64,000 bases of DNA, from the IMG/VR virus record IMGVR_UViG_3300020721_000006. One strand, 5' to 3'. Shown here piece after piece: positions 12,361 through 44,076 of the stretch. This DNA comes from a virus (lineage: Duplodnaviria > Heunggongvirae > Uroviricota > Caudoviricetes). A program made the translations under genes and the position numbers. Positions within the stretch are counted from its first letter, which is position 1. Every line of letters begins with the position of its first letter. Under the pieces are notes generated by a model. It worked only from the letters and a program-made list of their open reading frames with translations, had not been told where the DNA came from and did no database searches.

Positions 12361-14181
12361 ATGAAAAAGAAGAAAAATAAAATAGCAAAACCAAAACAAA
12401 TTGATGCTAATCAATTAAGAAACACTGCTGTAGCAATGCATCAACAAAACAAATTAATAGAAGCAGAAAAATTATACAAACAGCTATTAACTATATTACC
12501 AAATGATACTACTTGTTGGACTAATTTAGGAACACTAGAATACCAACGTGGCAACTTTAAAAATGCAATTCAATTCATTGATAAATCATTAAAGATAGAT
12601 CCAAACCAACCATTTGCACATAACAATCGTGGCAACATTCTTAAAGATCTTAATCTAGTCAATGAAGCATTAGAAAGTTATAGCAATGGTATAGCAATCA
12701 ATGATAAACTTCCAGAACTCTTATACAACCGTGCTATTACATTACATGAATTAGGCAGAGTTGATGAAGCATTGGAATCATACACCAAAACTATAGAAAT
12801 TGATAATAATAATATCAAAGCATATATAAATCTTGGTAACATTCTTCATGAATTAAACAGATCACACGAAGCTATAGCAAACTATAATAAAGTAAAAGAA
12901 CTACAACCAGATTTTGCATTAGCTTATGCAAATTGTGGCATTGTTTACCAACATATCAATGATGACGAAAAAGCATTAGAGAACTATACCAAAGCTACCG
13001 CAATTGAACCTATGTCATCAGTATATTCTAATCGTGGTAATATCTATCAAAATCAACATAAACTATTAGAAGCAATAGAAGAATATGAAAAAGCAATCAA
13101 AATAGATCCAACATTTCATACTGCACACGGTAACAAAGCTAATGCCCTATTATCAGTAAGAAGACTAGAAGAAGCTGAGAAATCATATAATACAGCATTA
13201 ACTATTGAACCAGACTTTGCTGATGCACTTTGGAATAAATCTATACTTCTATTATTATATGGACAATATGAAGAAGGTTTCAAATTGTTTGAAAATAGAT
13301 GGCGTTCTGCACTTAAGAACTATTATCGTAGATATGATAAACCATTGTGGAACGGACAATCATTACAAGATAAAACTATTTACATATACCCAGAACAAGG
13401 ATTTGGTGACTTTATACAATTTTGTAGATACCTACCAATGTTTGATAACATGAATTGTAAAGTAATAGTAGAAGTTCCAATACTGCTTCGAGATCTAGTG
13501 AAAACAATAAAATGCAATGCAACATTTCTAGATTCTGAAACATTTGACAAAACTATACCATTTGATTATCATTGTCCTATAATGAGTCTACCAGGTGGAT
13601 TTAAAACCACATTAGATACTATACCAGCTGATATGCCATACTTATATCCAGTTGAATCTAAACAAAAGTACTGGGCAGATAAATTAGGACCAAAAACAAA
13701 AACAAGAGTGGGATTAGTATGGTCTGGTGGATTTAGACCAGAACAACCAGAAACCTGGGCAGCTAACAGTAGAAGAAATATTAAATTAGCAAATCTAGAA
13801 TGCTTTAAAGATATAGATGTAGAATTCTATAGTATTCAAAAGGGCGCAACACCTGAAAAAGAATTAACAGATTTGGTTGCACAGAATTGGGATGGTCCAG
13901 TTATTACTAGTTATACCGATGAATTAATAGACTTTGCTGATACCGCTGCTTTCATAAGCAACTTGGATTTAGTAATATCAGTTGACACATCTACTGCCCA
14001 TGTAGCAGCTGCTATCGGTAAACCAGTATGGATATTTAATAGATTTGATGCTTGTTGGCGATGGTTACTTAACAGAACTGATAGTCCATGGTATCCAACT
14101 GTTACCTTGTTCAATCAAAAAGTTACCAATGAATGGGATGAAGTTATACAAGAAATACACGAGAAACTTAAAACATTATGA
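12361..14181 (+). CDS. TPR-repeat protein fused to glycosyltransferase-family-9-like (heptosyltransferase-fold) C-terminal domain
   Basis: N-terminal half consists of ~34-aa TPR repeats; C-terminal VDTSTAHVAAAIGKPVWIF motif typical of GT9 transferases; start more likely ATG 12361 than GTG 12349. Confidence 0.75.
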   Translation: MKKKKNKIAKPKQIDANQLRNTAVAMHQQNKLIEAEKLYKQLLTILPNDTTCWTNLGTLEYQRGNFKNAIQFIDKSLKIDPNQPFAHNNRGNILKDLNLVNEALESYSNGIAINDKLPELLYNRAITLHELGRVDEALESYTKTIEIDNNNIKAYINLGNILHELNRSHEAIANYNKVKELQPDFALAYANCGIVYQHINDDEKALENYTKATAIEPMSSVYSNRGNIYQNQHKLLEAIEEYEKAIKIDPTFHTAHGNKANALLSVRRLEEAEKSYNTALTIEPDFADALWNKSILLLLYGQYEEGFKLFENRWRSALKNYYRRYDKPLWNGQSLQDKTIYIYPEQGFGDFIQFCRYLPMFDNMNCKVIVEVPILLRDLVKTIKCNATFLDSETFDKTIPFDYHCPIMSLPGGFKTTLDTIPADMPYLYPVESKQKYWADKLGPKTKTRVGLVWSGGFRPEQPETWAANSRRNIKLANLECFKDIDVEFYSIQKGATPEKELTDLVAQNWDGPVITSYTDELIDFADTAAFISNLDLVISVDTSTAHVAAAIGKPVWIFNRFDACWRWLLNRTDSPWYPTVTLFNQKVTNEWDEVIQEIHEKLKTL

Positions 14182-14426
14182 CACAGAATACATTACCAGA
14201 TTTATATAACATATCAGTTGAAGAACTTCCAGAAGACATTAAAGAAAAGTTATATGATATGCTATTTGATAATGAATATAACAATTATGAGGAATTCGAT
14301 GATTTAATAAAAAAGGAACTTGATGAATATTTGTATAGCTTTACGTCTGCTTTATATTTAGAAGGGTACCAATTAACATTTAAATCTGAAGCTCATTATA
14401 CCTTTTTCCTACTCAAATGGATGTAA
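14178..14426 (+). CDS. WF-family small protein (C-terminal YTFFLLKWM)
   Basis: member of expanded family with C-terminal FxxExxxxWFxLRWS signature. Confidence 0.5.
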   Translation: MTQNTLPDLYNISVEELPEDIKEKLYDMLFDNEYNNYEEFDDLIKKELDEYLYSFTSALYLEGYQLTFKSEAHYTFFLLKWM

Positions 14427-14427
14427 T

Positions 14428-14664
14428 ATGTATAAAGTAATGATACCAGAAACAAACAAAATTGGTTACGAATGGACTAAGTTACATTTAATGAAGGCGT
14501 GGTGCAAAGAAACATATGGATATGCTAAGGTAGATAACAAATATATATGGCGTAGTAGAATGGAATATCATGTTGATTGGGGGAAGAATTCGGTTGATAA
14601 AATTGCGTGCTTCTATTTCCAAAAAGAAGAACACGCTACATGGTTTGTTTTACGATGGACTTGA
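14428..14664 (+). CDS. WF-family small protein (AWCKETYG ... ATWFVLRWT)
   Basis: both family motifs present. Confidence 0.6.
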   Translation: MYKVMIPETNKIGYEWTKLHLMKAWCKETYGYAKVDNKYIWRSRMEYHVDWGKNSVDKIACFYFQKEEHATWFVLRWT

Positions 14665-14870
14665 ATACTGCCGTAGTTGATTTAGAAAAATATGATAAGT
14701 TTAGATATAGAGATATCAATTCATATAATGGATTTGCCAGATTAAATGCTACCTATATTTTTAAAAAGAAGTTCAAGATTACCGGTGAACGATTTGTAGC
14801 ATTTAATGAATTAGAACTAACATTTGAAACTGAACAAGCCAAAACTTGGTTCTTATTAAACTTGCATTAA
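14655..14870 (+). CDS. WF-family-like small protein (KTWFLLNLH)
   Basis: start moved to internal ATG 14655 overlapping previous stop. Confidence 0.4.
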   Translation: MDLNTAVVDLEKYDKFRYRDINSYNGFARLNATYIFKKKFKITGERFVAFNELELTFETEQAKTWFLLNLH

Positions 14871-15301
14871 TGTTTTGATACTTTATAAAAAGCAAGATTA
14901 CCAGTCACATCATGATGCATTTTCCAAGTTGGTAATAATATTTTGGCTAATCTGCTATATAACGATTGTCTATTTGAATCTTCGGCAGAAAAAATAACAC
15001 TGTTGACTTCATGTGTATTTAAAAAATCTTTCATTATAGATACAACAGTTGAGAATACAGATTTTTCACTACCAGTACCAGTTTTGCTATAAACCTTTTT
15101 ACCTTTTACTATTTGATAAAATGCAATCTTCCACGATTCACCATAATTAAATGCATCAAAACCATATTTAAGTTTCTTTGAAAAGAATCTGCCAGGTTGA
15201 ACTATTACAAATTCCGCTACTGCTGATTTATTATCATTAACAATCCATTTATATGGAACAGTTGAATCAAATGATTCACTTAGTATTTCAATTATCTTCA
15301 T
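14867..15301 (-). CDS. hypothetical protein with CTS-like N-terminus MKIIEILSES
   Basis: 144-aa ORF on opposite strand inside the rightward array; GGAG RBS. Confidence 0.55.
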   Translation of the reverse strand: MKIIEILSESFDSTVPYKWIVNDNKSAVAEFVIVQPGRFFSKKLKYGFDAFNYGESWKIAFYQIVKGKKVYSKTGTGSEKSVFSTVVSIMKDFLNTHEVNSVIFSAEDSNRQSLYSRLAKILLPTWKMHHDVTGNLAFYKVSKH

Positions 15302-15332
15302 TAATATTTCTCCGATAGTGTATTTATTGGTC

Positions 15333-15361
15333 TTGACAAATATTAGTAATTAACATATAAT
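15333..15361 (+). promoter_or_regulatory. consensus promoter TTGACA-N17-TATAAT
   Basis: -35 15333-15338, -10 15356-15361; ATG 15369 lies at predicted TSS (leaderless-type). Confidence 0.55.
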
Positions 15362-15368
15362 AAAGAAT

Positions 15369-15575
15369 ATGAATACTATAACATTAAACCAAAAACAAAC
15401 TAGAATTTTCTGGAGTGACATTGTTTTTAACAAACAAGTAACTATACACTCTATTGACAAATACATTTATGACACATATAATATCACTAAACGTAGATGG
15501 ACAACCCATAGAACGTTAGAACTAACTTTTGAAGATGAAAAATATATATCCCTCTTTCTTGTGAGGTGGTCATGA
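15369..15575 (+). CDS. WF-family small protein (ISLFLVRWS)
   Basis: family C-terminal motif. Confidence 0.55.
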   Translation: MNTITLNQKQTRIFWSDIVFNKQVTIHSIDKYIYDTYNITKRRWTTHRTLELTFEDEKYISLFLVRWS

Positions 15576-15778
15576 ACGAAAAAGAAAATACATTTAATAT
15601 ATTAGCTAATAAACCATTATTAATTACTAGTTCATTATGCTACGTTGGTATACATAGTTGGAGTAAATGGAACGACCCACACACACGAGCAGTTGCCGGA
15701 TATCAAACTATATTTGAGACAATTCAAGAAAAAACTTGTAGACATTGTAATTTAAGAAAATATAAGAAGTTTAAGTAG
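15566..15778 (+). CDS. hypothetical small protein (70 aa), Cys-containing
   Basis: ORF only. Confidence 0.4.
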   Translation: MVMNEKENTFNILANKPLLITSSLCYVGIHSWSKWNDPHTRAVAGYQTIFETIQEKTCRHCNLRKYKKFK

Positions 15779-15848
15779 AGGGTTTAATGAAAATAGTTCA
15801 AATTCTAGAAGAAGATGATATACTACACCAACTGATTATTGTAGACCA

Positions 15849-16229
15849 TTGATTTTAACTACATTTTCACCACAAAGTGATGTTTATTCATTTTATAATA
15901 CCTATTCTGGTACACCAGAGAACAATGCAAAATGGATAAGAGTAGACCAAAAGTTTGGTGACTTCTGGTTTGGTAAGCCGGTAAAAGAATTAGTTATGGT
16001 GAACCCATATGAATTTATTCGTGGTGAAATACCTAAAAGCCATTTCTATGGTAAAACACGTAAAGATATAGAAAACGAGTATGATGAATATTTAAGTTCT
16101 AATGCAATGCCATACGGAAAATACCAAGAATATACTTTTGCAGAAATAAAAGCGTATGATATATCTTATTTTTCATGGGCTACTGATAAAGAAATAATAA
16201 AGGTTATTGATTATGATAATAAAGACTAA
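15849..16229 (+). CDS. hypothetical protein (126 aa)
   Basis: ORF only. Confidence 0.45.
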   Translation: MILTTFSPQSDVYSFYNTYSGTPENNAKWIRVDQKFGDFWFGKPVKELVMVNPYEFIRGEIPKSHFYGKTRKDIENEYDEYLSSNAMPYGKYQEYTFAEIKAYDISYFSWATDKEIIKVIDYDNKD

Positions 16230-16452
16230 GGTTATTAATGGTTCATACTTCCCTTTCTTAGCAGAAATGCGTGAGATCGAAGATAACGATTATATTGTTA
16301 TCAGACAATGGTGTATAGACCAATTTGGAATACCATCTAAAGCTGGCAGAGGGTTAGATACAACTGCAAGATGGTTGGAACCAATTTTTAGTAATGGTTT
16401 TAGATTTAAGAACGAAGCAGACCGTGTTTGGTTTGTAATGAGGTGGACATGA
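16207..16452 (+). CDS. WF-family small protein (QWCIDQFG ... RVWFVMRWT)
   Basis: both motifs. Confidence 0.55.
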   Translation: MIMIIKTKVINGSYFPFLAEMREIEDNDYIVIRQWCIDQFGIPSKAGRGLDTTARWLEPIFSNGFRFKNEADRVWFVMRWT

Positions 16453-16673
16453 AAATAGAGAAACTTGATAACAATCCTTACCCATATATTATTAGATTTA
16501 GAACCAACTGTGCTCTGACACAATGGGAAGAAATGTATAATTGGTGCACAGAAACGTTTGGCACCGCATACGCAACAGAAGGTATCTGGATTAAACAATT
16601 GAATGGCATACGATTCAAACATAAAGAACATGCTACCTGGTTTGTTTTACGATGGTCTGGTAATGACATATAA
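16449..16673 (+). CDS. WF-family small protein (NWCTETFG ... ATWFVLRWS)
   Basis: start at ATG 16449 (ATGA overlap); ORF-track N-terminal extension MVCNEVD is overlap artefact. Confidence 0.6.
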   Translation: MKIEKLDNNPYPYIIRFRTNCALTQWEEMYNWCTETFGTAYATEGIWIKQLNGIRFKHKEHATWFVLRWSGNDI

Positions 16674-16869
16674 TATAATATTAAATTCAGAACAAACTAA
16701 AAAGTTTTGGAAAGAAGTCTGTGAGAAAGTAAATTGGGAAATGAGTGAGCTTGACCAGTACTTATATGACAAGTATACTATTGTAAAACGAACATGGCAA
16801 TCTAATCGAACTTTACGTCTAACATTAGAAGATGAGAAATATATAACTTGGTTTAGCTTATACTTATGA
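16663..16869 (+). CDS. WF-family-like small protein (ITWFSLYL)
   Basis: internal start chosen to avoid long overlap. Confidence 0.45.
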   Translation: MTYNIILNSEQTKKFWKEVCEKVNWEMSELDQYLYDKYTIVKRTWQSNRTLRLTLEDEKYITWFSLYL

Positions 16870-17138
16870 ATGATTGTGAATTATATTTAAATGAAGAAAT
16901 GTGGGAAAGATTAAGAACATATCTTAATTACCTTGATCCTACTGATGAAATTATGTATTCTAACGGAAATCATAGACAACAATGGAAACGAGAAATTAAG
17001 AAACATTTTAAAGGAAAATACTATGAACATACTAAGGCATCAAGTCGTAAATTTTGGGGTTATATAATGTTTGATAAACCAGAACATAAAACATGGTTTA
17101 TTATCAAAATATCAGCAGAGGAAATGTATGATCATTGA
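16866..17138 (+). CDS. WF-family variant (FDKPEHKTWFIIKIS)
   Basis: ATGA overlap with previous gene; same subtype as minus-strand member ending KPEHKTWFIFKWS. Confidence 0.5.
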   Translation: MNDCELYLNEEMWERLRTYLNYLDPTDEIMYSNGNHRQQWKREIKKHFKGKYYEHTKASSRKFWGYIMFDKPEHKTWFIIKISAEEMYDH

Positions 17139-17367
17139 AAAACCAGGATATGTATTTACTTATAGTATTCAATTTGATTGGTTGTATCCTCATTTAGGGG
17201 AAATTTATGAATGGTGTGAAGATACTTTTGGTGAAGCATTTAATAACTCAGTTCATCAAGCAGTACATAATCCAGCAAAATGGACTAAACAAAGGGGTGG
17301 TGTAAGGTTTACAAAATTAGAACACGCTGAATGGTTTGTGTTACGGTGGAGTGGTATTGACATATAA
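17128..17367 (+). CDS. WF-family small protein (EWCEDTFG ... AEWFVLRWS)
   Basis: both motifs. Confidence 0.55.
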   Translation: MIIEKPGYVFTYSIQFDWLYPHLGEIYEWCEDTFGEAFNNSVHQAVHNPAKWTKQRGGVRFTKLEHAEWFVLRWSGIDI

Positions 17368-17413
17368 TACAAAACACTGTATAATACAGAATAATTAAAA
17401 TATAAGGAATATT

Positions 17414-17923
17414 ATGAATAAAGAAAAATACGTATTTTTTTGGGGCGGAGTTTTCAGCCAATGGTACAAATCTAACTTTACTTTAGATGGAATTACATTT
17501 AATACTGCTGAGCAGTTCATGATGTATCAAAGGGCCATGCTTTTTGAAGATACCGACATTGCTAAACAAATTTTAAAATGCAATGATCCTAAGAAACAGA
17601 AAGAATTAGGAAGAAAAGTAAAGAACTTTGAAATGTCAAAATGGAATGAACATTGTCTTCAATATGTATTCCGTGGTAATCATGCCAAATTTGACCAAAA
17701 CAAACGATTATATGATATGCTAATGAATACTGCTCCTGCACTATTAGTTGAAGCATCACCATTTGATCGGGTATGGGGGATAGGATTAGATGAGAAAGCT
17801 GCCAGTAAAACACCTGAAAGTGAATGGCCAGGCACAAATTGGTTGGGTAAAACATTGACAAATCTTCGTGATCACTTTGAGCATGAGGAATTAATTGAAC
17901 AATGGGAAAAAACTAATGAATAA
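17414..17923 (+). CDS. NADAR-domain protein (YbiA-like, DUF1768)
   Basis: FSQWY ... FNTAEQFMMYQRAMLF ... KELGRKVKNF ... LLVEASPFDRVWGIGL pattern characteristic of NADAR family. Confidence 0.65.
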   Translation: MNKEKYVFFWGGVFSQWYKSNFTLDGITFNTAEQFMMYQRAMLFEDTDIAKQILKCNDPKKQKELGRKVKNFEMSKWNEHCLQYVFRGNHAKFDQNKRLYDMLMNTAPALLVEASPFDRVWGIGLDEKAASKTPESEWPGTNWLGKTLTNLRDHFEHEELIEQWEKTNE

Positions 17924-18728: not shown

Positions 18729-18743
18729 ATATGTATTTAGTAG

Positions 18744-18932: not shown

Positions 18933-18934
18933 AA

Positions 18935-19201: not shown

Positions 19202-19372
19202 ATGAAAAAGTTATATGTTGGTATGTTTGATGTTGTATTAGCAGTAATGGTTATCTCATTCTTTGTATTTGTTGATTCAATTATAATTTTAATTGGATTT
19301 GCTGCTATTATGTACTTAGTTGTAGAACACTATTTAATTATGCGTAGTTGCTACTTATCTAGCAGCAAGTAG
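19202..19372 (+). CDS. small two-TM membrane peptide (56 aa)
   Basis: ATG one nt after previous stop; below track cutoff. Confidence 0.35.
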   Translation: MKKLYVGMFDVVLAVMVISFFVFVDSIIILIGFAAIMYLVVEHYLIMRSCYLSSSK

Positions 19373-19380
19373 GTAGTAAA

Positions 19381-19614
19381 ATGATAGAATATAAAGTAAA
19401 AGTTTGTGATGATAGAACGGAATGGTATTTAAATGACCAATTACATCGAGAAGATGGCCCTGCTACTGAATGGGCTAATGGTCGTAAAAGATGGTTTTTA
19501 AATGACAAAGAATATACCGAAGAAGAATTCCTCAAATCGACTCAACCAGCTAAAGAACTAACTATTGCTGAAATTGAAACATTACTTGGACATCGTGTTA
19601 AGGTAGTAAAATAA
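19381..19614 (+). CDS. MORN-variant-like repeat protein (W-LND-LHREDGPA repeats)
   Basis: repeat WYLNDQLHREDGPATEWANG... Confidence 0.55.
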   Translation: MIEYKVKVCDDRTEWYLNDQLHREDGPATEWANGRKRWFLNDKEYTEEEFLKSTQPAKELTIAEIETLLGHRVKVVK

Positions 19615-36445: not shown

Positions 36446-36476
36446 AAAGAAAGCCCGCATTTAGCGGGCTTTTTAT
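36446..36476. terminator. bidirectional rho-independent terminator AAAGCCCGC-attta-GCGGGCTTTTT
   Basis: perfect 8-bp GC stem flanked by A-run and T-run; ends both the rightward cluster and the leftward array. Confidence 0.7.
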
Positions 36477-36954: not shown

Positions 36955-37208
36955 CCCCATCTCAATAAAAACCAATTCATATCTTCTCTATTTTTAAAAT
37001 GAAAATGAGTTCCTGCTACGAGCACACGGTCTCTTCCAAAATTATGACACCAGTCATGAATTGGTGGCAAATAGGTTTCATGCCAACCAGAACCTGGTTG
37101 ATATAAATCATACCAATTAATGCTATAGATATCACACAATGAAAAAATAAGCCCATATTCATACTCTCTATCTAAAAAAGAAAATCTGTGAAACGTATAT
37201 TCTTTCAT
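36951..37208 (-). CDS. WF-family small protein (MNWFLLRWG)
   Basis: start corrected to MKEYTF. Confidence 0.55.
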   Translation of the reverse strand: MKEYTFHRFSFLDREYEYGLIFSLCDIYSINWYDLYQPGSGWHETYLPPIHDWCHNFGRDRVLVAGTHFHFKNREDMNWFLLRWG

Positions 37209-37432
37209 GACCACCTCAATACAAACCAATTATAATGCGCTTCACTTTCAAATGTAAGATATGTTTTTTCTAATGTTGCGTGAAATGGTTCTAACTCTTT
37301 ATTGATATTATCAATTCTAGCAATTCTATCAACATGTAATAATCCAACTAAACTCTTACTCTTAAGAACAGTCTCTTGGTAAAAGTTCAACCACCCTGGA
37401 ACAGTTATATAATTCTTTCTAATCTTTTTCAT
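37205..37432 (-). CDS. WF-family small protein (YNWFVLRWS)
   Basis: family motif. Confidence 0.55.
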   Translation of the reverse strand: MKKIRKNYITVPGWLNFYQETVLKSKSLVGLLHVDRIARIDNINKELEPFHATLEKTYLTFESEAHYNWFVLRWS

Positions 37433-37637
37433 GTCCCCACCTTAAAATAAACCAAGTATAATCTGCATCACTTAATGAATATTGATATGTCCCAGGCACC
37501 CATTTTGCCGACTTGTATCCAATACTATGTAAAAACATCTCGCCACCTTCTCTGGATGTATTTCCAATTCTACTAGAGAAGTGATTACTAAATAATTTTC
37601 GAAGTTCTGGATATGAAACTATTCGTATTGTTTTCAT
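37419..37637 (-). CDS. WF-family small protein (YTWFILRWG)
   Basis: start corrected to MKTIRI. Confidence 0.55.
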   Translation of the reverse strand: MKTIRIVSYPELRKLFSNHFSSRIGNTSREGGEMFLHSIGYKSAKWVPGTYQYSLSDADYTWFILRWGHEKD

Positions 37638-37852
37638 GAAAACCTCAATATAAACCAATTACGGTCTGCTTCATTTTTAAATTTAAATACATTACCGTAA
37701 TTGGTGCTAGTATAAATCCAACTACTGGATTTATTCAAGTTTTGTGGTTTACCCCATTGTTCTTCACACCATTTATACATTTCTTTACGTTTCTTAAAAT
37801 CTTCATCCGTTAAGACAATATGAAATGTATATAATTCTTCATCAATATACAT
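37634..37852 (-). CDS. WF-family small protein (KWCEEQWG ... RNWFILRFS)
   Basis: both motifs. Confidence 0.55.
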   Translation of the reverse strand: MYIDEELYTFHIVLTDEDFKKRKEMYKWCEEQWGKPQNLNKSSSWIYTSTNYGNVFKFKNEADRNWFILRFS

Positions 37853-37857
37853 TATGA

Positions 37858-38127
37858 TTATTTCCTATAAATATTATTACCATTCATGAATTGGACCATA
37901 ACAAATTCTTCTTCTGTATATTGTTTGCCATTTAAAAACCATGCTTTATACCCATTTGGGTATTCAACAGCAGGGCCATCCAGTCTATGTCTTTTGCCAT
38001 TTAACCACCATTCTTTATGACCAGTTATACCTTCATATGCTGGACCATCTTCTCGGTGTAATCGGCCATTTAATCGCCATGATTTAGTACCGTCTGGATA
38101 TTCATATTGTTTTGGTTGTGTTTTCAT
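37858..38127 (-). CDS. MORN-variant-like repeat protein (W-LNG-LHREDGPA x3)
   Basis: same repeat type as 19381/19614 but on opposite strand; start corrected to MKTQPK. Confidence 0.55.
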   Translation of the reverse strand: MKTQPKQYEYPDGTKSWRLNGRLHREDGPAYEGITGHKEWWLNGKRHRLDGPAVEYPNGYKAWFLNGKQYTEEEFVMVQFMNGNNIYRK

Positions 38128-38372
38128 GACCACCTCAATAAAAACCAATTTGCATATGCTTCGTTTCTAAATTTAACTTGAATTGTGCCAATAGTTGTTA
38201 GATAGAATGCCCATTCCTGGTCTTTAAGATAATAAGAATATCCACCGTTCTCTAAACCACCAAAACTTTCAACCAGCCAGTTGTATACCTGATTGGCATT
38301 TGATGGAACTTTTATTTCAATACAATAAAGTTTTTGACCAAGTAAGTCTGTGCTGCATCTAATATTGTTCAT
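38124..38372 (-). CDS. WF-family small protein (NWLVESFG ... ANWFLLRWS)
   Basis: both motifs. Confidence 0.55.
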   Translation of the reverse strand: MNNIRCSTDLLGQKLYCIEIKVPSNANQVYNWLVESFGGLENGGYSYYLKDQEWAFYLTTIGTIQVKFRNEAYANWFLLRWS

Positions 38373-38577
38373 TTGACCACCTTAACATAAACCAATTACG
38401 ATCTTCCTCCGTTAAAAATCTAATGCTAGGATAATCAAATTCTGTATTTACTACATGCCATTTTATTCCATGTTCACCAAATGTATCAGTACACCAATCA
38501 ATATATTCACTTAATAAGAAACGTTCGTTATTTTCTAAATCTATAAGATATATAAAAACTTCATTAAATGCTTTCAC
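38359..38577 (-). CDS. WF-family small protein (DWCTDTFG ... RNWFMLRWS), probable GTG start
   Basis: GTGA overlap analogous to ATGA overlaps elsewhere. Confidence 0.45.
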   Translation of the reverse strand: MKAFNEVFIYLIDLENNERFLLSEYIDWCTDTFGEHGIKWHVVNTEFDYPSIRFLTEEDRNWFMLRWSNEQY

Positions 38578-38816
38578 GACCACCTCAATACAAACCAATT
38601 ACGATCTTCTTCACGTAAGAAACAAAACAAATCACAATCATAGGATTCACGATAATCATGAACCCATCGTTCATATTGTTCACCAAAAGTTTCTTCACAC
38701 CATTCCCATAATGCTTCTGCCCAATCTACATTTTCTTGCAATGTAGATTCTATTTTCAATCTATCATCATAGTATAAATTAACCTGCCAGACAAATTCTT
38801 CTTTATAAAGTTCCAT
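38574..38816 (-). CDS. WF-family small protein (EWCEETFG ... RNWFVLRWS)
   Basis: start at MELYKEEF one nt after upstream stop. Confidence 0.55.
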   Translation of the reverse strand: MELYKEEFVWQVNLYYDDRLKIESTLQENVDWAEALWEWCEETFGEQYERWVHDYRESYDCDLFCFLREEDRNWFVLRWS

Positions 38817-38817
38817 T

Positions 38818-39045
38818 TTAACTCCACTTAAAAATAAACCAGGTCTTGTGTTCTGGTTTTTTAAATGTAATTTTAAATCCATCATACAAATTACCACCAA
38901 TAGTTGCATTAAATTCTGAATTTAACATAGTATCTAACTCTACACTATTGACAATTTTATAATGTTTAACATAATGTTTAATAAAATTTATCCAATATAA
39001 CGGACACCTGTGTAGTTCGCCTGGTAATTGAATTACATTATCCAT
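38818..39045 (-). CDS. WF-family variant (FKKPEHKTWFIFKWS)
   Basis: family motif. Confidence 0.5.
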   Translation of the reverse strand: MDNVIQLPGELHRCPLYWINFIKHYVKHYKIVNSVELDTMLNSEFNATIGGNLYDGFKITFKKPEHKTWFIFKWS

Positions 39046-39392
39046 TATGCTACCGTATATTCAATATCATCTGGTAATTCAAAATGAAAATTAAACTTTG
39101 GAAAACGTTCATGTGCAACCTCTAATGCTTCGTCTACTGATTCACCTTGTGATACAAATGTCCCACATTCTTTAAACCACATCATAATTTGATTACCATG
39201 TTTCTCAACTTCTAATTCTACATACTCATATCCCTCATCACTTTCAACAGTATATGATCTAGTAGCGTTGTCAAATAACTCTATAACTGATTTTGGATCT
39301 CGTGCATAAGCACGCATTATTATTTTATTCCATAAAAATCCACCAATAAACATGCCAAACAAAAATGCACCAATTACTAATAAAATCATCAT
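39045..39392 (-). CDS. N-terminal TM protein (115 aa); paralog of frameshifted 22949
   Basis: ORF. Confidence 0.5.
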   Translation of the reverse strand: MMILLVIGAFLFGMFIGGFLWNKIIMRAYARDPKSVIELFDNATRSYTVESDEGYEYVELEVEKHGNQIMMWFKECGTFVSQGESVDEALEVAHERFPKFNFHFELPDDIEYTVA

Positions 39393-39393
39393 A

Positions 39394-39843
39394 TTATTTT
39401 CCTCTTGTTAGTTTACTTAATAATAAAAAATTGTCATAACTTTGTTGTAAAGCTGGGTTCTCTAATATTTCTTCAGCTTCTTTAATCATTTCTGAAACAC
39501 CAGCTCTCACAGCTTCCATTATAGTAGAAGTTTTCAATCTACACAAGTCTTCCCCATAGACTTCTCTCATACGGTCCCATGCTTCTTTTTGTTCTTGTGT
39601 ATATGGTGGTATTTCTGGAGTATAAGTCAACTTATCTACAATAATAGCAGCAATGCGGTCTTCTGCATAACTTCCAGCAGCAATCATTGGTGCAAATGCT
39701 GGTTCAATGTTATATCGTCTAGATCTAGACCCTGGTTTGCATACTGTTAGATGAGTGCCTTCTGGCCAAGAATCGTTAAATTCATTGTCATATTCACGTG
39801 CAGGAATATATTTTCTGCCTTTTTTGATAAAATAAGTAGTCAT
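39394..39843 (-). CDS. hypothetical protein (149 aa)
   Basis: ORF. Confidence 0.5.
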   Translation of the reverse strand: MTTYFIKKGRKYIPAREYDNEFNDSWPEGTHLTVCKPGSRSRRYNIEPAFAPMIAAGSYAEDRIAAIIVDKLTYTPEIPPYTQEQKEAWDRMREVYGEDLCRLKTSTIMEAVRAGVSEMIKEAEEILENPALQQSYDNFLLLSKLTRGK

Positions 39844-39896
39844 TGATGGTTCCTGTAATCGTTAAAGTTCTATTATAACAATTACAGGAATAGATG

Positions 39897-40160
39897 TCAA
39901 GTAGAAAACTTGATTGTGTAGAATGTGTAATCTGATGGTTTAATATAAGCTGTTATATAATATTCGTATCCAAGGGTATATGGATGGTAATGTTTAACTA
40001 CCTCTATATGTATACAATGATTACTAACCCATTGTCCTTCTTCAGAATTTAGCCAAATATCTAATATTTCATTCTGTGTCGGTGATGTCATATATATTAC
40101 CACTCTATGAAATATTTTTCTTTCATACACGGAGTCGTTAAATATCTTAAAATTATCCAT
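39897..40160 (-). CDS. degenerate WF-family-like protein (YTFYTIKFST)
   Basis: ORF. Confidence 0.4.
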   Translation of the reverse strand: MDNFKIFNDSVYERKIFHRVVIYMTSPTQNEILDIWLNSEEGQWVSNHCIHIEVVKHYHPYTLGYEYYITAYIKPSDYTFYTIKFST

Positions 40161-40163
40161 GTA

Positions 40164-40349
40164 TTATCCCCACTTTAACAAATACCAAGTAAAATCTGAT
40201 TCATTTCTAAAGTAGATATAGTTTTGAAACTGAAACCATCGGTTGGTATCAACTTTAAATTGTTCAGTACACCAGGTAACTTGGTCCCATCGTGTACTAT
40301 TACAACTAGATAGCAGTACACCATAATAATCGTGTAATTCTTCAGACAT
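40164..40349 (-). CDS. WF-family small protein (FTWYLLKWG)
   Basis: family motif. Confidence 0.5.
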   Translation of the reverse strand: MSEELHDYYGVLLSSCNSTRWDQVTWCTEQFKVDTNRWFQFQNYIYFRNESDFTWYLLKWG

Positions 40350-40623
40350 TTTTATAATTGGTACTAGTTTCTTCTTTGTCCCACTTTAAAACAGCCCATG
40401 TATATTTTGCTTTTGCTTCTTCTTCATTGTCATATTTCCAACCAAACTTATTGATTCTATTTTGACTATTCAATATAGAATCATATTCTGTCATCTTATC
40501 TGCCGCTGTCCAAAACCGGTGTCTTAAATTTAAATCTATTTGATAATATTTTTGTTTTCTTACAGAATGTTCAGATAGCGAAAATTTATCAGATTTGTTT
40601 AATAATTTATGGCTATTTCTCAT
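40342..40623 (-). CDS. WF-family-like protein (YTWAVLKWD + tail)
   Basis: family motif with C-terminal extension. Confidence 0.45.
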   Translation of the reverse strand: MRNSHKLLNKSDKFSLSEHSVRKQKYYQIDLNLRHRFWTAADKMTEYDSILNSQNRINKFGWKYDNEEEAKAKYTWAVLKWDKEETSTNYKNV

Positions 40624-40630
40624 TATTCTC

Positions 40631-40861
40631 TTATTTTTCTTCTTTTTTAGGAACTCTTTCAGACCATCTTAATAAAAAGAAATCACGATGGCCTTCATTT
40701 TTAAATGACCATAACCTATCAGTCATAAAAATTCCACAATTAGAGCTTTCACTCCAATCAATCATTTCATCGCGTAAATCATCATTCATTTCATCACGGT
40801 CAAATGATAGACCTGGTAGTTTGAACATTCCCACGGATACGTGCTTCATATAACTCTCCAC
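40631..40861 (-). CDS. WF-family small protein (RDFFLLRWS + basic tail)
   Basis: family motif. Confidence 0.5.
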   Translation of the reverse strand: MESYMKHVSVGMFKLPGLSFDRDEMNDDLRDEMIDWSESSNCGIFMTDRLWSFKNEGHRDFFLLRWSERVPKKEEK

Positions 40862-40878
40862 ATAAAATTAAAAATAAT

Positions 40879-40907
40879 ATTGTATAATAAAACTGGTTAA
40901 ATGTCAA
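40879..40907 (-). promoter_or_regulatory. internal promoter TTGACA-N17-TACAAT (minus strand)
   Basis: -35 40902-40907, -10 40879-40884. Confidence 0.4.
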
Positions 40908-41218
40908 CTCAAAAATTCACTATACTTTAATAAGAAAAAAGTTCTCTTTGGCTCACTATAAAAATCTAAGTGTATCATATTGGAATAATACCCTCTAGAT
41001 GGTTGAATCATATAAGTTTCATCTACAATTTTATTAGCATATTGTTTCATGAATTCATCGTACATTGGATTTTCTATCCATGTACGATGCGACCTTGATG
41101 TAAATCCCAAAACTTTCTTAGTTTTTTCTCTTATGGCTAGAACACTTTTTGGATAATCTTTATACATTTCTATTAATAAATTATGCCATTGCATCTCTGA
41201 TATTATTACTGGTTTCAT
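40904..41218 (-). CDS. WF-family-like protein (RTFFLLKYS)
   Basis: start corrected to MKPVII. Confidence 0.45.
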   Translation of the reverse strand: MKPVIISEMQWHNLLIEMYKDYPKSVLAIREKTKKVLGFTSRSHRTWIENPMYDEFMKQYANKIVDETYMIQPSRGYYSNMIHLDFYSEPKRTFFLLKYSEFLS

Positions 41219-41427
41219 TGCCACCTCATTAAGAACCATTGATAATGCGCTGTACTTTCAAATGTGAGAACACGATCTTGATATATTGCATTAAATTTTT
41301 GTAATTCAGCATTACGAATTTCCAACCACAGTTCTTCATCATTCCCAGACATGCTATCACAATGATCACGAAGATTCAATATTACGGTGTCTGGCATATA
41401 ACTGATACTTATTTTTACTTCATCCAT
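41215..41427 (-). CDS. WF-family small protein (YQWFLMRWQ)
   Basis: family motif. Confidence 0.5.
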   Translation of the reverse strand: MDEVKISISYMPDTVILNLRDHCDSMSGNDEELWLEIRNAELQKFNAIYQDRVLTFESTAHYQWFLMRWQ

Positions 41428-41678
41428 TTTAATCTAAACCATGTCATTTGGGCACGTTTTAATTTCCTAGCATCAAATTCTACATACCATTCTGTCTCAC
41501 GACCGTAATCATTCCAGTGATACCGTTTAATCATTGCCCAACCTTTGCCAGTTATATAGTCGGTAGACCAAAATTTGTGGTCATCTATTGGTCCAAAATG
41601 TTTTATTAACCATTCTTGAAGTTCTGTGTATTCAGGACTATCATATTCTATTAAATCTTTAACTTGTTTTCTAAGCAC
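41415..41678 (-). CDS. WF-family small protein (EWLIKHFG ... MTWFRLKWMK)
   Basis: both motifs. Confidence 0.5.
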   Translation of the reverse strand: MLRKQVKDLIEYDSPEYTELQEWLIKHFGPIDDHKFWSTDYITGKGWAMIKRYHWNDYGRETEWYVEFDARKLKRAQMTWFRLKWMK

Positions 41679-42015
41679 TGTGTTTTATCAAATAAAATGT
41701 TAAATATTCATTATCCAAAATAGCCATATCAGTTGGATATCTATTGTGTTCGCCTTTGTACCATGTATTGGTATTCGCATTTAAGATTTGTATCTTAACC
41801 ATCTTTGGATTGAGTTTTATAACTTTTGCTACTTCTAATCTATTATAGACACTAACAGCTACAAAATCACCAACTTTGATCTTACGACCGATTATATCAA
41901 AATGAACTAGTTCCTTTTTAGGGGTTCTCTTCTTCTCTGTCATATACTTCCCATGTATTATTTTCATAGTCCCAATGTCTTGTATCATAAACTGTATATT
42001 CCAGAGTATAACCAA
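41671..42015 (-). CDS. hypothetical protein (start uncertain)
   Basis: ORF. Confidence 0.4.
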   Translation of the reverse strand: MVILWNIQFMIQDIGTMKIIHGKYMTEKKRTPKKELVHFDIIGRKIKVGDFVAVSVYNRLEVAKVIKLNPKMVKIQILNANTNTWYKGEHNRYPTDMAILDNEYLTFYLIKHSA

Positions 42016-42208
42016 ACAACCCTAATTTAGTATTCAACCCTGCGTGGTCACAGTTAATACTTAAACAAAACTCGATATTAATAATTTGATCTGTGCGATA
42101 TAGATTAAGTTCCCATGCTTTATGGGTTGTAAGTAACCCATTTGTCCCCCAAATCAAATTCCAAGTATTAGACCAAGGATTTGAAATTAAAAAATTAAAA
42201 GTTATCAT
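41918..42208 (-). CDS. hypothetical protein (96 aa)
   Basis: ORF. Confidence 0.45.
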   Translation of the reverse strand: MITFNFLISNPWSNTWNLIWGTNGLLTTHKAWELNLYRTDQIINIEFCLSINCDHAGLNTKLGLFGYTLEYTVYDTRHWDYENNTWEVYDREEENP

Positions 42209-42565
42209 TTATATCACCAAACAAAATGCAAGATAGCCAATATAACACAAATGATGAAAAAGCTGGTCAAGACCGATATGACACCAAAATTGTTTATCAT
42301 TCATATCACGATTACCATAATTCATTTTAATCCAATCGATATGGTAATGTAAAATTATATCAATTATACCAATAAATAATGCTTGGTTGAATGGAACTAT
42401 GAATAAGAAAATAGCATAAGTTAAAAGACCATGTTTAACACTATGCCCTACACCAATCATATTACCATATATGCCTTTTGTCTGAACTTCATCTTGCGAT
42501 TGATTCATGAAATCCACATGGTAATGTTTTAATTGTAAAAATACAAGGACTAATAATATGTCCAT
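42209..42565 (-). CDS. small polytopic membrane protein with His-rich motifs (HYHIDW ... LFHHLCY)
   Basis: three hydrophobic segments, paired His boxes. Confidence 0.45.
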   Translation of the reverse strand: MDILLVLVFLQLKHYHVDFMNQSQDEVQTKGIYGNMIGVGHSVKHGLLTYAIFLFIVPFNQALFIGIIDIILHYHIDWIKMNYGNRDMNDKQFWCHIGLDQLFHHLCYIGYLAFCLVI

Positions 42566-42601
42566 AAAAATCTCCGAATTTAAATTATTAGTATACTACA
42601 G

Positions 42602-42937
42602 TTATTTGTTATTGTCAAGGTTTTCTTCAGCTTGACATATTTGTTTAACCATATTGTAATTGTTCTTGGCATTTAATAATGCTGGATACTTTTCAAGTAT
42701 ATCCTTTTCATTCATCTCTTCTATCATCTTTTGTTTAGCCCATTCTAATATTTGTACTGCTTCAAATGATAAATCTACCGCAGCATCTCCTTGTAATTCG
42801 TACCACGCGGTACCAGAATTATATTCTACTCTACCATTTTTATACCTCATTTGACCACATTCTGCTAATGGGTCTAAATTGGATGAGTTAAAATTATAAG
42901 ATGTTAGATATCGCCCTGTTGTTATTTTATTGATCAT
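42602..42937 (-). CDS. hypothetical protein (111 aa)
   Basis: ORF. Confidence 0.45.
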   Translation of the reverse strand: MINKITTGRYLTSYNFNSSNLDPLAECGQMRYKNGRVEYNSGTAWYELQGDAAVDLSFEAVQILEWAKQKMIEEMNEKDILEKYPALLNAKNNYNMVKQICQAEENLDNNK

Positions 42938-43110
42938 AGTTCTTTCACGTTAAATTTTAATAGTAAAAATGTTAAATCTGAATCATTTGTCAGTCTAAGA
43001 TCCACTAAATTTTTTAAATCCCACCGAGTGCCATAGCCACCCCAATTATTATTGATATACCAAATTACTTCCATTGGGTCTTCAAATTTCCAAATTGGTA
43101 TTGATATCAT
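42934..43110 (-). CDS. WF-family-like small protein (58 aa; TFLLLKFNVKEL)
   Basis: below track cutoff; ATGA overlap with downstream gene. Confidence 0.4.
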   Translation of the reverse strand: MISIPIWKFEDPMEVIWYINNNWGGYGTRWDLKNLVDLRLTNDSDLTFLLLKFNVKEL

Positions 43111-43328
43111 ATTCCAAACTTAATCCTAAATAACATATACTTTTGTTCATTTACAATTATGTAGTTTGCAGTAATATACCCATCTATTGTTATAGATATT
43201 CCATATGTTTTTTCAATATATTCAGACAAATCTGCAAATTTCTTATGACATTCTGTAGATGCAATAGTTCTAATTATTTGATAAAACTTATCACGTTTTA
43301 TACGTTCTTCGGCTAATTTTGGATCCAT
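43107..43328 (-). CDS. degenerate WF-family-like protein (YMLFRIKFGI)
   Basis: start corrected to MDPKLA. Confidence 0.4.
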   Translation of the reverse strand: MDPKLAEERIKRDKFYQIIRTIASTECHKKFADLSEYIEKTYGISITIDGYITANYIIVNEQKYMLFRIKFGI

Positions 43329-43561
43329 TATTTCCACCTTAATATAAACCAAGTGTACACATCTTCTCTAAGATCATAGCAATTTTCTTCCTGCCAATAA
43401 TCCTTAAATCTACGGTTTGCAGTATACCGCCATCCATCTGATTGGTTAATAATCCAATCGTTTATCTCTGGTCTATTAGATCTAATCGTATACCATTTTT
43501 CATTTAAATCTTGGACAACCCGAACATTTTCATATGGTTTTGTAAATGCAGATGGAACCAA
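43328..43561 (-). CDS. WF-family small protein (YTWFILRWK)
   Basis: family motif. Confidence 0.5.
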   Translation of the reverse strand: MVPSAFTKPYENVRVVQDLNEKWYTIRSNRPEINDWIINQSDGWRYTANRRFKDYWQEENCYDLREDVYTWFILRWK

Positions 43562-43597
43562 AATATGATTAAAAAAAGATTTCAGAACACAAATTTT

Positions 43598-43798
43598 TCA
43601 TTCTGAACACCATCTTAATGCAAACATTGTTGAATCAATATCACGATATAACGTTAAAACACCACCTTGCATATTAAATTTCATTTTACGTTCTCGAAGC
43701 CATTCTGCTACATTATTCCATTCTACTGTTGTTAGACCTTTTTCGTTATTACTTAATAAAAAGCTATTATTTTCAAATGGCATTTTACGTATTCTCAT
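43598..43798 (-). CDS. WF-family-like small protein (TMFALRWCSE)
   Basis: start corrected to MRIRKM. Confidence 0.45.
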   Translation of the reverse strand: MRIRKMPFENNSFLLSNNEKGLTTVEWNNVAEWLRERKMKFNMQGGVLTLYRDIDSTMFALRWCSE

Positions 43799-44076
43799 CC
43801 CCACCTCAATGCAAACCAATTACGGTCTGCTTCATCCTTTATTAAAATTCTTTCAGATCCAAGCCAACACCATTTAGGATTTACTTCACCCATACATGCT
43901 ATTTCCTCATATTCATAGTATTCACAACTTGGTCCAAACTGTTCCCAACACCATTGGCGGATATCACGTACTCTAGCCATATTTTCTGATTTATTATAAT
44001 GATACATTAACGCCATATAGGTAAAATATGAATTACCATTGTGTCTACCATCCATCTTTTGTATTTTTATTTTCAT
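43795..44076 (-). CDS. WF-family protein (QWCWEQFG ... RNWFALRWG), first gene of leftward array
   Basis: both motifs. Confidence 0.55.
   Translation of the reverse strand: MKIKIQKMDGRHNGNSYFTYMALMYHYNKSENMARVRDIRQWCWEQFGPSCEYYEYEEIACMGEVNPKWCWLGSERILIKDEADRNWFALRWG

Follow-up and report, generated by a model that had tools for sequence, protein, structure and literature searches.

About 30 small genes in the window, the whole 64,000-nucleotide stretch of Caudoviricetes DNA that was analysed, encode one protein domain of approximately 65 aa, unannotated until now. We put at about even the chances that this is a phage domain family carried as early, coupled cassettes and made up of host-binding proteins diversified on one scaffold.

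The original prediction of a family of about 30 copies, nine in a rightward and about 21 in a leftward array, agrees with what we found. Leave-one-out profiles supported 28 of the 32 candidate small ORFs (E<0.01) and left two marginal (39897-40160 and 43107-43328). The ORFs 36488-36781 and 41671-42015 had no such support. Among 706 stop-to-stop ORFs, a profile from the 13 clearest members finds those 13 again at E 1e-13 to 1e-28 and adds about 12 further ORFs at E<0.1. The A3 profile, almost wholly built on sequences from outside the window, matches 21 ORFs of the window (E<0.01), none of them outside the two arrays, and profile-profile comparison (hhalign) links the divergent to the core members with 96% probability (E 4e-9). 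The two motifs thought to be shared, WCxExFG and FxNExDRNWFxLRWS, are recognisable together in 13 members only; the others mainly keep the C-terminal (T/N)WFxL(R/K)W block, chiefly the last beta-strand and helix (LTFExE...WFxLRW). Sequence and profile searches matched no known family in Pfam, PHROG or PDB.

The rightward array (14178-17367) has nine members (basis of the call in brackets):

14178-14426, plus strand, 82 aa, divergent type (…LTFKSEAHYTFFLLKWM), start overlapping the stop of the TPR/GT9 gene (leave-one-out HMM E 2e-9; A3 profile E 2.6e-4)
14428-14664, plus strand, 78 aa, core type (WCKETYG … FYFQKEEHATWFVLRWT) (profile searches, leave-one-out)
14655-14870, plus strand, 71 aa, divergent type (…LTFETEQAKTWFLLNLH) (leave-one-out E 4e-4)
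15369-15575, plus strand, 68 aa, divergent type, nearest paralogue 16663-16869 at 47% identity (leave-one-out profile)
16213-16452, plus strand, 79 aa, core type (profile searches, leave-one-out)
16449-16673, plus strand, 74 aa, core type, C-terminal extension SGNDI, AlphaFold2-modelled (leave-one-out; model)
16663-16869, plus strand, 68 aa, divergent type (leave-one-out E 7e-6)
16866-17138, plus strand, 90 aa, divergent type (…FDKPEHKTWFIIKIS…) (leave-one-out E 4e-4)
17128-17367, plus strand, 79 aa, core type (leave-one-out)

The leftward array (36778-44076) has 19-21 members, here in the order of transcription:

43795-44076, minus strand, 93 aa, core type, opening the array (profile searches, leave-one-out)
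43598-43798, minus strand, 66 aa, divergent type (leave-one-out E 2.5e-3)
43328-43561, minus strand, divergent type, N-terminus damaged: ATG start lost by a 14-nt deletion relative to the related phages L060 and L061 (leave-one-out; comparison with both phages)
43107-43328, minus strand, marginal member, 73 aa (…NEQKYMLFRIKFGI) (leave-one-out E 0.09)
42934-43110, minus strand, 58 aa, divergent type (leave-one-out E 6e-3)
41415-41678, minus strand, 87 aa, divergent type (leave-one-out E 5e-5)
41215-41427, minus strand, 70 aa, divergent type (…LTFESTAHYQWFLMRWQ) (A3 profile, leave-one-out)
40904-41218, minus strand, 104 aa, divergent type, stop overlapping a TTGACA -35 box (leave-one-out)
40631-40849, minus strand, 72 aa, of a widely conserved subfamily (leave-one-out)
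40342-40623, minus strand, 93 aa, divergent type (leave-one-out E 3e-4)
40164-40349, minus strand, 61 aa, core type (profile searches, leave-one-out)
39897-40160, minus strand, marginal member, 87 aa (leave-one-out E 0.06)
38818-39045, minus strand, 75 aa, divergent type (A3 profile, leave-one-out)
38574-38816, minus strand, 80 aa, core type (profile searches, leave-one-out)
38359-38577, minus strand, 72 aa, core type, GTG start within a GTGA overlap (leave-one-out)
38124-38372, minus strand, 82 aa, core type (profile searches, leave-one-out)
37634-37852, minus strand, 72 aa, core type (profile searches, leave-one-out)
37419-37637, minus strand, 72 aa, divergent type, cassette missing in L060 (leave-one-out; genome comparison)
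37205-37432, minus strand, 75 aa, divergent type, AlphaFold2-modelled (leave-one-out; model)
36951-37208, minus strand, 85 aa, core type (profile searches, leave-one-out)
36778-36954, minus strand, 58 aa, core type, final supported member of the array (profile searches, leave-one-out)

Unrelated genes break up the arrays at 14867-15301 (minus strand), 15572-16229 (plus strand), 37858-38127, 39045-39843 and 41671-42937.

The LRWS codons (TTG AGG TGG TCA TGA) spell a Shine-Dalgarno sequence (GAGGTGG) and so serve the gene that follows as its ribosome-binding site and ATGA start overlap. An earlier suspicion that the motif might be a ribosome-binding site was thus right for these last codons, but amino-acid conservation reaches over about 45 residues. 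AGG makes up 8% of the Arg codons in the large window genes and 13 of 19 at the motif. Across related loci it is used by 96 of the 119 members that have a start codon 1-8 nt downstream and by 2 of the 27 that do not, and these 27 keep the Arg. Where no downstream gene is coupled, the Arg of LRW is encoded by CGA, CGG or AGA; in member 14428-14664 it is CGA. Since Arg persists, with codons other than AGG, at ends that no gene follows, the motif acts as a signal at the protein and at the RNA level. Read from the sequence, the array genes are chained by translational coupling.

Two representatives, folded as the original prediction had proposed, gave confident AlphaFold2 models from shallow alignments (13 and 18 sequences): 16449-16673 (beta-beta-alpha-beta-beta-alpha, pLDDT 88.5) and 37205-37432 (beta1, extra helices, then alpha-beta-beta-alpha, pLDDT 86.7). 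The predicted family fold is a two-layer alpha/beta sandwich, beta-beta-alpha-beta-beta-alpha. In 103 diverse representatives, conservation sits at alternating inward-facing positions, mostly an aromatic core (W32, C33, F37 and G38 in helix 1; W47; FxF in strand 4; WFxLRW in helix 2). Most other positions are highly variable, with entropies near 3.5-4 bits, and insertions gather after model positions 3, 17, 41 and 47; the variable parts include three loops that accept them. The roughly 45 conserved residues, the Arg retained with CGA, CGG or AGA and the compact predicted fold bear out the view that this is a real protein domain. The resemblance to DCoH/pterin-4a-carbinolamine dehydratase-like sandwiches (1uso, 2ebb, 4low), the BMC shell protein 4olp and ACT 5v0s is one of fold only: identities are 5-11%, Foldseek comparisons with DCoH-like and other beta-beta-alpha-beta-beta-alpha sandwiches were not significant, and there was no Pfam or PDB sequence match.

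A fold resembling RRM, eIF1/YciH, ACT and ribosomal-protein sandwiches would also suit binding to RNA or DNA, by which the family could retune host or phage expression. We regard such regulators as improbable: the fold scores are generic among small alpha/beta sandwiches, no Pfam RNA-binding family was matched, the open sheet face that serves RRMs for binding is hypervariable here, and net charges range from -13 to +9 with a median pI of about 7 for the window proteins and 6.2 for the 103 representatives.

Helix 2 is kept almost end to end (E59, D61, R62, N63, W64, F65, L67, R68, W69, S70), including positions unlikely to be buried, and in about two thirds of the representatives the domain stops no more than one residue past it. 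Conservation beyond the needs of core packing may point to oligomerisation or a partner in common instead of independent binders: the C-terminal helix (NExDRNWFxLRWS) would dock one shared host partner (e.g. a protease) or phage partner while the variable face recruits differing substrates, or the paralogues would hetero-oligomerise through it. DCoH and ACT folds, the structural analogues, oligomerise or dock through helices or sheet, and ClpP genes lie near arrays, a weak sign at 2 of 139 neighbouring ORFs. However, the conservation of helix 2 is partly due to its role in the ribosome-binding site and start junction and to core packing of W, F and L, and no conserved partner gene stands beside the arrays across the loci compared. 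We rate an adaptor or hub as an unlikely, if the foremost, alternative to separate host-binding proteins.

The host-binding reading assigns the arrays to early expression. Perfect TTGACA-N17-TATAAT sites number 16 in the window against 0.19 expected; 15 of them fall within 12.3-44.1 kb, several in array gaps. The following signals, the promoters and the terminator alike called as consensus matches only, are associated with the arrays:

12299-12327, plus strand, perfect consensus promoter ahead of the TPR/GT9 gene and rightward members one to three
15333-15361, plus strand, perfect consensus promoter ahead of 15369-15575 and the rightward genes that follow it
15454-15482, plus strand, second perfect consensus promoter near the preceding one
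17357-17385, plus strand, perfect consensus promoter, partly within the last codons of 17128-17367
44104-44132, minus strand, promoter with the perfect sigma-70 consensus (TTGACA-N17-TATAAT), upstream of the leftward array
42590-42618, minus strand, 11/12 consensus promoter in an intergenic gap within the leftward array
40879-40907, minus strand, 11/12 consensus promoter that lies upstream of 40631-40849 and overlaps the 40904-41218 stop
39872-39900, minus strand, perfect consensus promoter that overlaps the 39897-40160 stop
36450-36472, minus strand, intrinsic-terminator-like hairpin with a 9-bp stem (6 GC pairs) and a T run, where the leftward transcription unit ends

The promoter at 17357-17385 would drive the NADAR gene (17414-17923) directly downstream of the rightward array; the codons of the C-terminal extension SGIDI* of 17128-17367 include its -35 TTGACA. 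Perfect promoters and one terminator bracketing the arrays mark them as early genes. They would be early transcription units read by host RNA polymerase, a timing inferred from sigma-70 consensus matches.

The expansion had been called typical of rapidly diversifying gene sets, which our comparisons do not show. With best pairwise identities of 25-53%, the paralogues are old, and orthologues in a syntenic related phage are under purifying selection (pooled pN/pS 0.33, with small per-gene counts and a few genes with a ratio near 1); for 40631-40849 against L060, dN is 0.02 and dS 1.18. Cassette 37419-37637 is precisely absent in L060, with the junction within shared CATGAAAA, and an 80-aa L060 member absent from the window has a 26-nt direct repeat, AATTGGTTTGTATTRAGGTGGKCATGA, on its two sides. 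Both family-cassette indels examined against the related phage thus fall exactly at the conserved 3' junction, and on the evidence of these two, cassettes appear to be gained and lost singly, gene by gene. Because all cassettes share the approximately 26-nt 3' end, recombination between adjacent 3' ends would delete or insert exactly one gene, which would account for growth, shrinkage and shuffling of the arrays.

These indels, the damaged start of 43328-43561 and the final codons, whose choice is driven by the next gene's Shine-Dalgarno sequence and start overlap, could also be read as selfish amplification, in which the 3' motif is a spreading ribosome-binding and recombination site and the ORFs are largely dispensable filler. 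We consider this very improbable. As a sole explanation it is largely refuted by the conservation of some 45 residues upstream, the synonymous codons that keep the motif where genes are uncoupled, the confident predicted fold, the pN/pS and dN/dS values above, and the domain's occurrence in 1,609 clusters.

These clusters, from an exhaustive profile search (E<=1e-3), are almost all metagenomic proteins of 60-160 aa in which the domain is nearly always C-terminal. When 185,579 genomes of bacteria and archaea were scanned for DRNWFxLRW-coding DNA, there were 21 pattern matches and no real member, and the domain appears to be restricted to phages. Among deposited phage genomes, a recognisable homologue was found only in the Sinorhizobium jumbo phage Phosso (XYS97803.1, which scores E 5e-11 with the family's profile and contains WCEETFG … FKMRWAS), with one scoring member in the 30-kb stretch examined and a second site elsewhere in the genome by BLAST. 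Foldseek detected BFVD proteins of "uncultured Caudovirales phage" (for example A0A6J5T1G0 and A0A6J7WGK8; E 7e-5, TM 0.83), and Agrobacterium phage Atu_ph07 gave weak structural matches. All of these, from BFVD, Phosso and Atu_ph07, are true members or near relatives and are annotated solely as hypothetical. The proposed copy-number comparison showed 10-36 copies per 20-kb locus in related large uncultivated phages, with a maximum of 36 in 11 kb; far from a one-off, expansion is thus a hallmark of that group. "Extraordinary for a phage" therefore holds against deposited genomes, where Phosso stands alone, but within this group such expansion is ordinary.

In 7 of the 103 representatives, Pfam Gp23 positions ~3-45 lie upstream of the domain. 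They are a conserved segment from the N-terminus of the T4-type major head protein, and its matches include the head and vertex genes of 815 phage records. Small capsid-associated or assembly-related proteins nevertheless seem a highly improbable identity for the family, as the segment is absent from every window member, the genes stand behind sigma-70-type early promoters distant from recognisable head genes, and Gp23-fused forms occur within the same accessory arrays (L021).

PeSL cassettes in T4-type hyperplastic regions carry an intergenic promoter and a stem-loop (Arbiol et al. 2010, PMC2839356; Comeau et al. 2014, PMC4122927). Like them, the window arrays have short conserved repeats between small non-essential early genes, sigma-70-like promoters that are strong, plus recombination between repeats that deletes, inserts and shuffles single-gene modules among close relatives. 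In contrast, the window repeat consists of a protein family's coding 3' end plus the next gene's ribosome-binding site and start, and the single terminator-like hairpin is at the array end, without a stem-loop per cassette. The early host-takeover modules of virulent phages (T4 immediate-early genes, the SPO1 host-takeover module, T5 pre-early and T7 class I genes) are made up of unrelated proteins, whereas in the window some 30 genes come from one domain family. Common to both are many tiny proteins, strong promoters of host type, genes that are tightly packed and translationally coupled, and a content that is dispensable and variable.

The setting behind early promoters and the neighbouring NADAR gene make it plausible that the family interacts with the host or counters its defences. 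The charge range, the NADAR gene and the heterogeneous accessory genes adjoining arrays in other phages are consistent with diverse targets; the purifying recent evolution counts against anti-defence, for which an arms-race signature is expected, and homology ties no member to a target or phenotype. Our best inference is a diversified early host-binding set, for takeover or anti-defence, on one conserved scaffold. Each paralogue would be a small early binder whose variable surface engages a different host component, and the arrays would act as a library of monkey-wrench proteins sharing one stable scaffold.

An ORF listing of 13.5-18 kb and 36-45 kb showed chains of 58-110 aa ORFs ending in (T/N)WFx(L/M)(R/K)W(S/G/T). 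When a profile from the 13 clearest members (A1) was searched against the 706 stop-to-stop ORFs of the window, these 13 scored E 1e-13 to 1e-28, about a dozen additional ORFs matched at E<0.1, and no convincing match was found outside the two arrays. A profile derived almost entirely from other metagenomes' proteins (A3) recovered 21 window ORFs at E<0.01, and leave-one-out profiles supported 28 of 32 candidates at E<0.01. By the latter, ORFs 39897-40160 and 43107-43328 are marginal, and 36488-36781 and 41671-42015, which lack such support, were rejected as members. Profile-profile comparison joined the divergent members (A4) to the core family at 96% probability (E 4e-9), spanning helix 1 to the C-terminus. 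Leave-one-out, A1 and A3 profiles and the profile-profile comparison together bear out the original prediction's count of nine rightward and about 21 leftward members; its two-motif signature (WCxExFG and FxNExDRNWFxLRWS) holds in part, as both blocks are clear in only 13 members.

Unrelated genes interrupt the arrays, among others those for DUF6934 (on the opposite strand), DUF3307 and a MORN-like repeat protein. The window encodes three MORN-like repeat proteins (HREDGPAxEWxNGxxxWxLNG), at 19363-19973 (+) and 37858-38127 (-), one of them lying inside the leftward array. Five small ORFs (20998-21736, 24176-24409 and 30513-30770, plus strand) form another paralogous family, unrelated to the first, with the motifs FAE(L/M)IVKEC and a C-terminal HFGV.

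Profile searches of the kind first suggested for this family gave no significant match to a family represented in Pfam, PHROGs or PDB. Ten window members had no Pfam or PHROGs match above threshold, 103 diverse representatives gave only Gp23/major-head matches, all on fused N-termini, and the family profile reached a best E of 0.34 against PDB sequences. The AlphaFold2 model of 16449-16673, made from A1, is compact (mean pLDDT 88.5, pTM 0.77); its strands span residues 3-5, 13-16, 47-50 and 53-56, and its helices 23-37 and 59-69. The model of the divergent member 37205-37432 (AlphaFold2, pLDDT 86.7) shares the first strand and the helix-strand-strand-helix core with it and contains inserted helices in addition. 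Conservation among the 103 representatives is concentrated in a few columns.

Conserved columns in 103 diverse representatives
Strand 2: Y13, V15
Helix 1: W32 (invariant), C33, F37, G38
Further conserved column: W47
Strand 4: F54, F56
Helix 2: E59, D61, W64, F65, L67, R68, W69, S70

Most remaining columns have an entropy near 3.5-4 bits, insertions cluster after model positions 3, 17, 41 and 47, and net charge across the family ranges from -13 to +9. The beta-beta-alpha-beta-beta-alpha two-layer sandwich topology of the model is also that of the DCoH/PCD-like fold, but the family lacks PF01329 homology (no Pfam match), identity to the structural matches is 9-11%, and none of its conserved columns is a histidine as in the pterin-dehydratase active site. 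RNA recognition motifs have a different topology (beta-alpha-beta-beta-alpha-beta); neither the ten window members nor the 103 representatives match RRM in Pfam, and outward-facing strand positions are hypervariable where RRM has conserved aromatic and basic RNP residues.

A word-indexed search returned 37 proteins, all metagenomic and unnamed, on contigs of up to 306-356 kb; the window's own proteins are present in freshwater lake metagenomes. An exhaustive profile search (E<=1e-3) identified 1,609 clusters at 50% identity, in which the domain nearly always terminates at the protein C-terminus. Family arrays were found in 31 IMG/VR loci, of which L024 has 36 profile matches within 11 kb.

Profile matches per locus in other IMG/VR loci
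L012: 20
L036: 18
L022: 17
L037: 16

Structural matches in BFVD are all hypothetical proteins of "uncultured Caudovirales phage", with weak ones in Agrobacterium jumbo phage Atu_ph07. In the 50,697 deposited phage records, the sole recognisable member is a hypothetical protein of the Sinorhizobium jumbo phage Phosso (E 5e-11 with the family profile); against the same records, neither the rightward array (megablast) nor an 894-aa neighbour and member 40631 (tblastn) gave a match. A degenerate DNA pattern for DRNWFxLRW had 21 matches in 185,579 bacterial and archaeal genomes, all of them chance and none a real member, the pattern covering only that form of the motif. The family appears confined to large, mostly uncultivated phages, as far as the DRNWFxLRW scan can tell. 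Within this group heavy expansion is usual, and its description as extraordinary for a phage holds only against the deposited records, among which Phosso alone has a recognisable homologue.

Near the arrays of the related loci L007-L037 we detected AmoC/PmoC (one locus), ClpP (two), an ART-PolyVal ADP-ribosyltransferase, NAD synthase, superoxide dismutase and Band 7 proteins. Freshwater lakes are known to harbour phages with pmoC (PMC7674155). No conserved partner gene adjoining the arrays was found in other phages.

A typical gene end in the arrays reads AAT TGG TTT GTA TTG AGG TGG TCA TGA; it contains a Shine-Dalgarno sequence, GAGGTGG, and its stop and the ATG of the following gene overlap in ATGA. 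Of the arginine codons in 25 large window genes, 8% are AGG, compared with 13 of 19 at the motif position, and all 13 AGG-bearing motifs have a start codon 2-5 nt past the Trp codon. Where the motif is not directly followed by a start, the arginine codon is CGA, CGG or AGA (members 14664, 17367, 40631). Across the 31 related loci, AGG is found in 96 of 119 Arg-bearing members with a start within 1-8 nt and in only 2 of the 27 members that lack one, which keep the arginine; upstream, conservation extends for about 45 more residues, up to WCxExFG. The motif is both a protein signal and a ribosome-binding signal. The codon evidence rules out a pure RBS artefact, the alternative named in the original prediction, while the RBS role that it envisaged is present as well. 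A protein helix and the next gene's Shine-Dalgarno sequence and start overlap share their codons, a clean case of dual coding.

The window paralogues, whose best pairwise identity is 25-53%, are old, and orthologues in the syntenic array of a related locus (L060) are 59-100% identical. Pooled pN/pS against L060 is 0.33 for family genes and 0.49 for the interspersed non-family genes, showing purifying selection on the orthologues; no strong positive selection was seen in this pairwise comparison. With old paralogues and a pooled ratio of 0.33, the "rapidly diversifying" character suggested for the family is not borne out. Member 40631-40849 has a dS of 1.18 and a dN of 0.02 against L060, whereas neighbouring genes have dS <=0.27, which indicates strong constraint together with mosaic ancestry and points to recombinational mosaicism within the array. 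Many contigs carry its subfamily (MKHVSVGMFKLPGLSFDRDEM…), of which some members are also in NCBI.

Two real differences in family cassettes separate the window from L060. Member 37419-37637 is missing from L060, with the junction inside the shared CATGAAAA at the stop/start overlap, and an 80-aa L060 member missing from the window lies between the copies of a 26-nt direct repeat, AATTGGTTTGTATTRAGGTGGKCATGA, and this repeat is the conserved gene end. Since both cassette indels lie at the conserved gene end/start junction, the 3' end behaves as a recombination site by which genes move singly; a coding repeat doubles as the breakpoint of single-gene gain and loss. The apparent absence of 36778, 40164 and 43328 from L060 reflects uncalled genes and not real indels; for 43328-43561, the ATG was lost via a 14-nt deletion. 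The metagenomic protein P0082 (141 aa) has two tandem domain copies in a single chain, as would result from loss of the stop/start junction separating two cassettes. The L060 array also contains a NUMOD3 homing-endonuclease gene (L060:11857-12624, minus strand; absent from the window at ~42200-42600) and an extra 88-aa non-family gene (L060:14342-14608), likewise absent from the window.

Single-gene movement at a repeat is functionally similar to that of the PeSL cassettes of T4-type phages (PMC2839356), and indel breakpoints between relatives fall in the repeated motif here too (two cassettes against L060, one with the 26-nt repeat). Unlike in PeSL cassettes, the repeat lies within coding sequence. 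For the strong sigma-70-like promoter of the PeSL unit the picture is mixed: some cassette boundaries have a consensus promoter (44132, 42618, 40907, 39900, 15333 and 17357), and most junctions are without one. Of PeSL-like stem-loop terminators we found only one credible hairpin, which closes the leftward array (36472-36450). Plastic regions in which repeated motifs shuffle small early accessory genes are already known; this protein family, on this scale and with a 3' end in triple use, is not described in the resources and literature searched, and a literature search on the family motif and on jumbo-phage paralogue arrays found nothing relevant.

The window contains 16 perfect TTGACA-N17-TATAAT sites (0.19 expected from shuffles), 15 of them between 12.3 and 44.1 kb and a further one at 55248-55276. 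Perfect sites outline a convergent, probably early region of about 32 kb, on the plus strand from 12.3 to ~33 kb and on the minus strand from 44.1 to 36.4 kb.

Promoters and terminator of the two arrays
44132-44104, minus strand: perfect consensus promoter ahead of the first leftward gene
42618, minus strand: consensus promoter (11/12) in an intergenic gap
40907, minus strand: consensus promoter (11/12) in an intergenic gap
39900, minus strand: consensus promoter (12/12) in an intergenic gap
36472-36450, minus strand: terminator-like hairpin (9-bp GC-rich stem and T run) after the last leftward gene
12299, 15333, 15454 and 17357, plus strand: perfect consensus promoters bracketing the rightward array

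The minus-strand sites at 42618, 40907 and 39900 occupy the only intergenic gaps, and in 17128-17367 the codons of the C-terminal extension SGIDI* spell the -35 box of the promoter of the NADAR gene. The arrays have host-type consensus promoters, co-oriented compact operons and an end terminator, the sequence features of early genes, and we infer that they are early genes transcribed by host RNA polymerase as polycistronic, translationally coupled messages. The gene ahead of the rightward array, 12349-14181 (+), codes for a protein of 610 aa that contains several TPR repeats and weakly matches glycosyltransferase family 9. Because the first family member begins in an overlap with the stop of this gene, co-transcription and translational coupling of the two are probable.

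Directly after the rightward array lies a gene for a NADAR-domain protein (17414-17923, plus strand; Pfam E 1.8e-49). NADAR enzymes reverse DNA ADP-ribosylation by DarT-type toxins, and the gene may therefore be an anti-defence gene. This context is suggestive of a possible anti-defence role for the family itself, for which the Pfam and PDB searches were negative. Outside the convergent region, 55296-56576 (+) is a 426-aa ORF with a Cas12f1-like TNB domain (TnpB-type, Pfam E 1.3e-14), which suggests an IS200/IS605-type element or the relic of an RNA-guided nuclease in the phage; immediately upstream, the opposite strand has a perfect consensus promoter.

In about 7% of the distant representatives the domain is preceded by the conserved N-terminal segment of T4-type major head proteins (LLPMIRKVxPxLIAxxIVGVQPM, Pfam Gp23 positions ~3-45); these fusions are P0011, P0016, P0022, P0045, P0048, P0078, P0081, P0165 and L021:1225-1605, and none was found in the window. 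In 815 phage records, head and vertex genes match this segment. According to a review (PMC3014915), the Gol peptide, an activator of the Lit protease, is located in the first quarter of gp23 and is the most conserved region of that protein. The fused segment falls in the same quarter and is a candidate for identity with the Gol region.

Our composite reading, in which the members would be small early binding proteins, has in our judgement an even chance of being correct, with most of the uncertainty in the functional step. That step draws on the conserved aromatic core combined with hypervariable surfaces and loops, on the lack of a catalytic-looking polar constellation and of a consistent charge, and on the accessory-gene neighbourhood. 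The near-complete conservation of helix 2 prompts the main rival, an adaptor or oligomer model, which we consider rather unlikely; nucleic-acid binding, selfish filler and capsid association are each less likely than that model. A more far-reaching proposal, which we regard as quite improbable, is a self-organising cassette system whose 3' segment would close the fold, supply the next RBS and start, and recombine, thereby duplicating, deleting and shuffling cassettes. Large phages would in this way assemble and rearrange libraries containing dozens of early binder proteins, which might act as adaptors whose conserved helix docks on one common partner and whose variable faces are shown to host defence or housekeeping proteins, and the Gp23-segment fusions would be candidate decoys or sponges of capsid-sensing immunity.

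Despite more than 1,600 sequence clusters and as many as 36 tandem copies in one genome, the domain is absent from Pfam, PHROGs and PDB; a name and a model for it would allow a visible part of the uncharacterised genes in large freshwater phages to be annotated. Were the members host-directed binders, every array would be a ready panel of small, stable inhibitors or probes of bacterial proteins.
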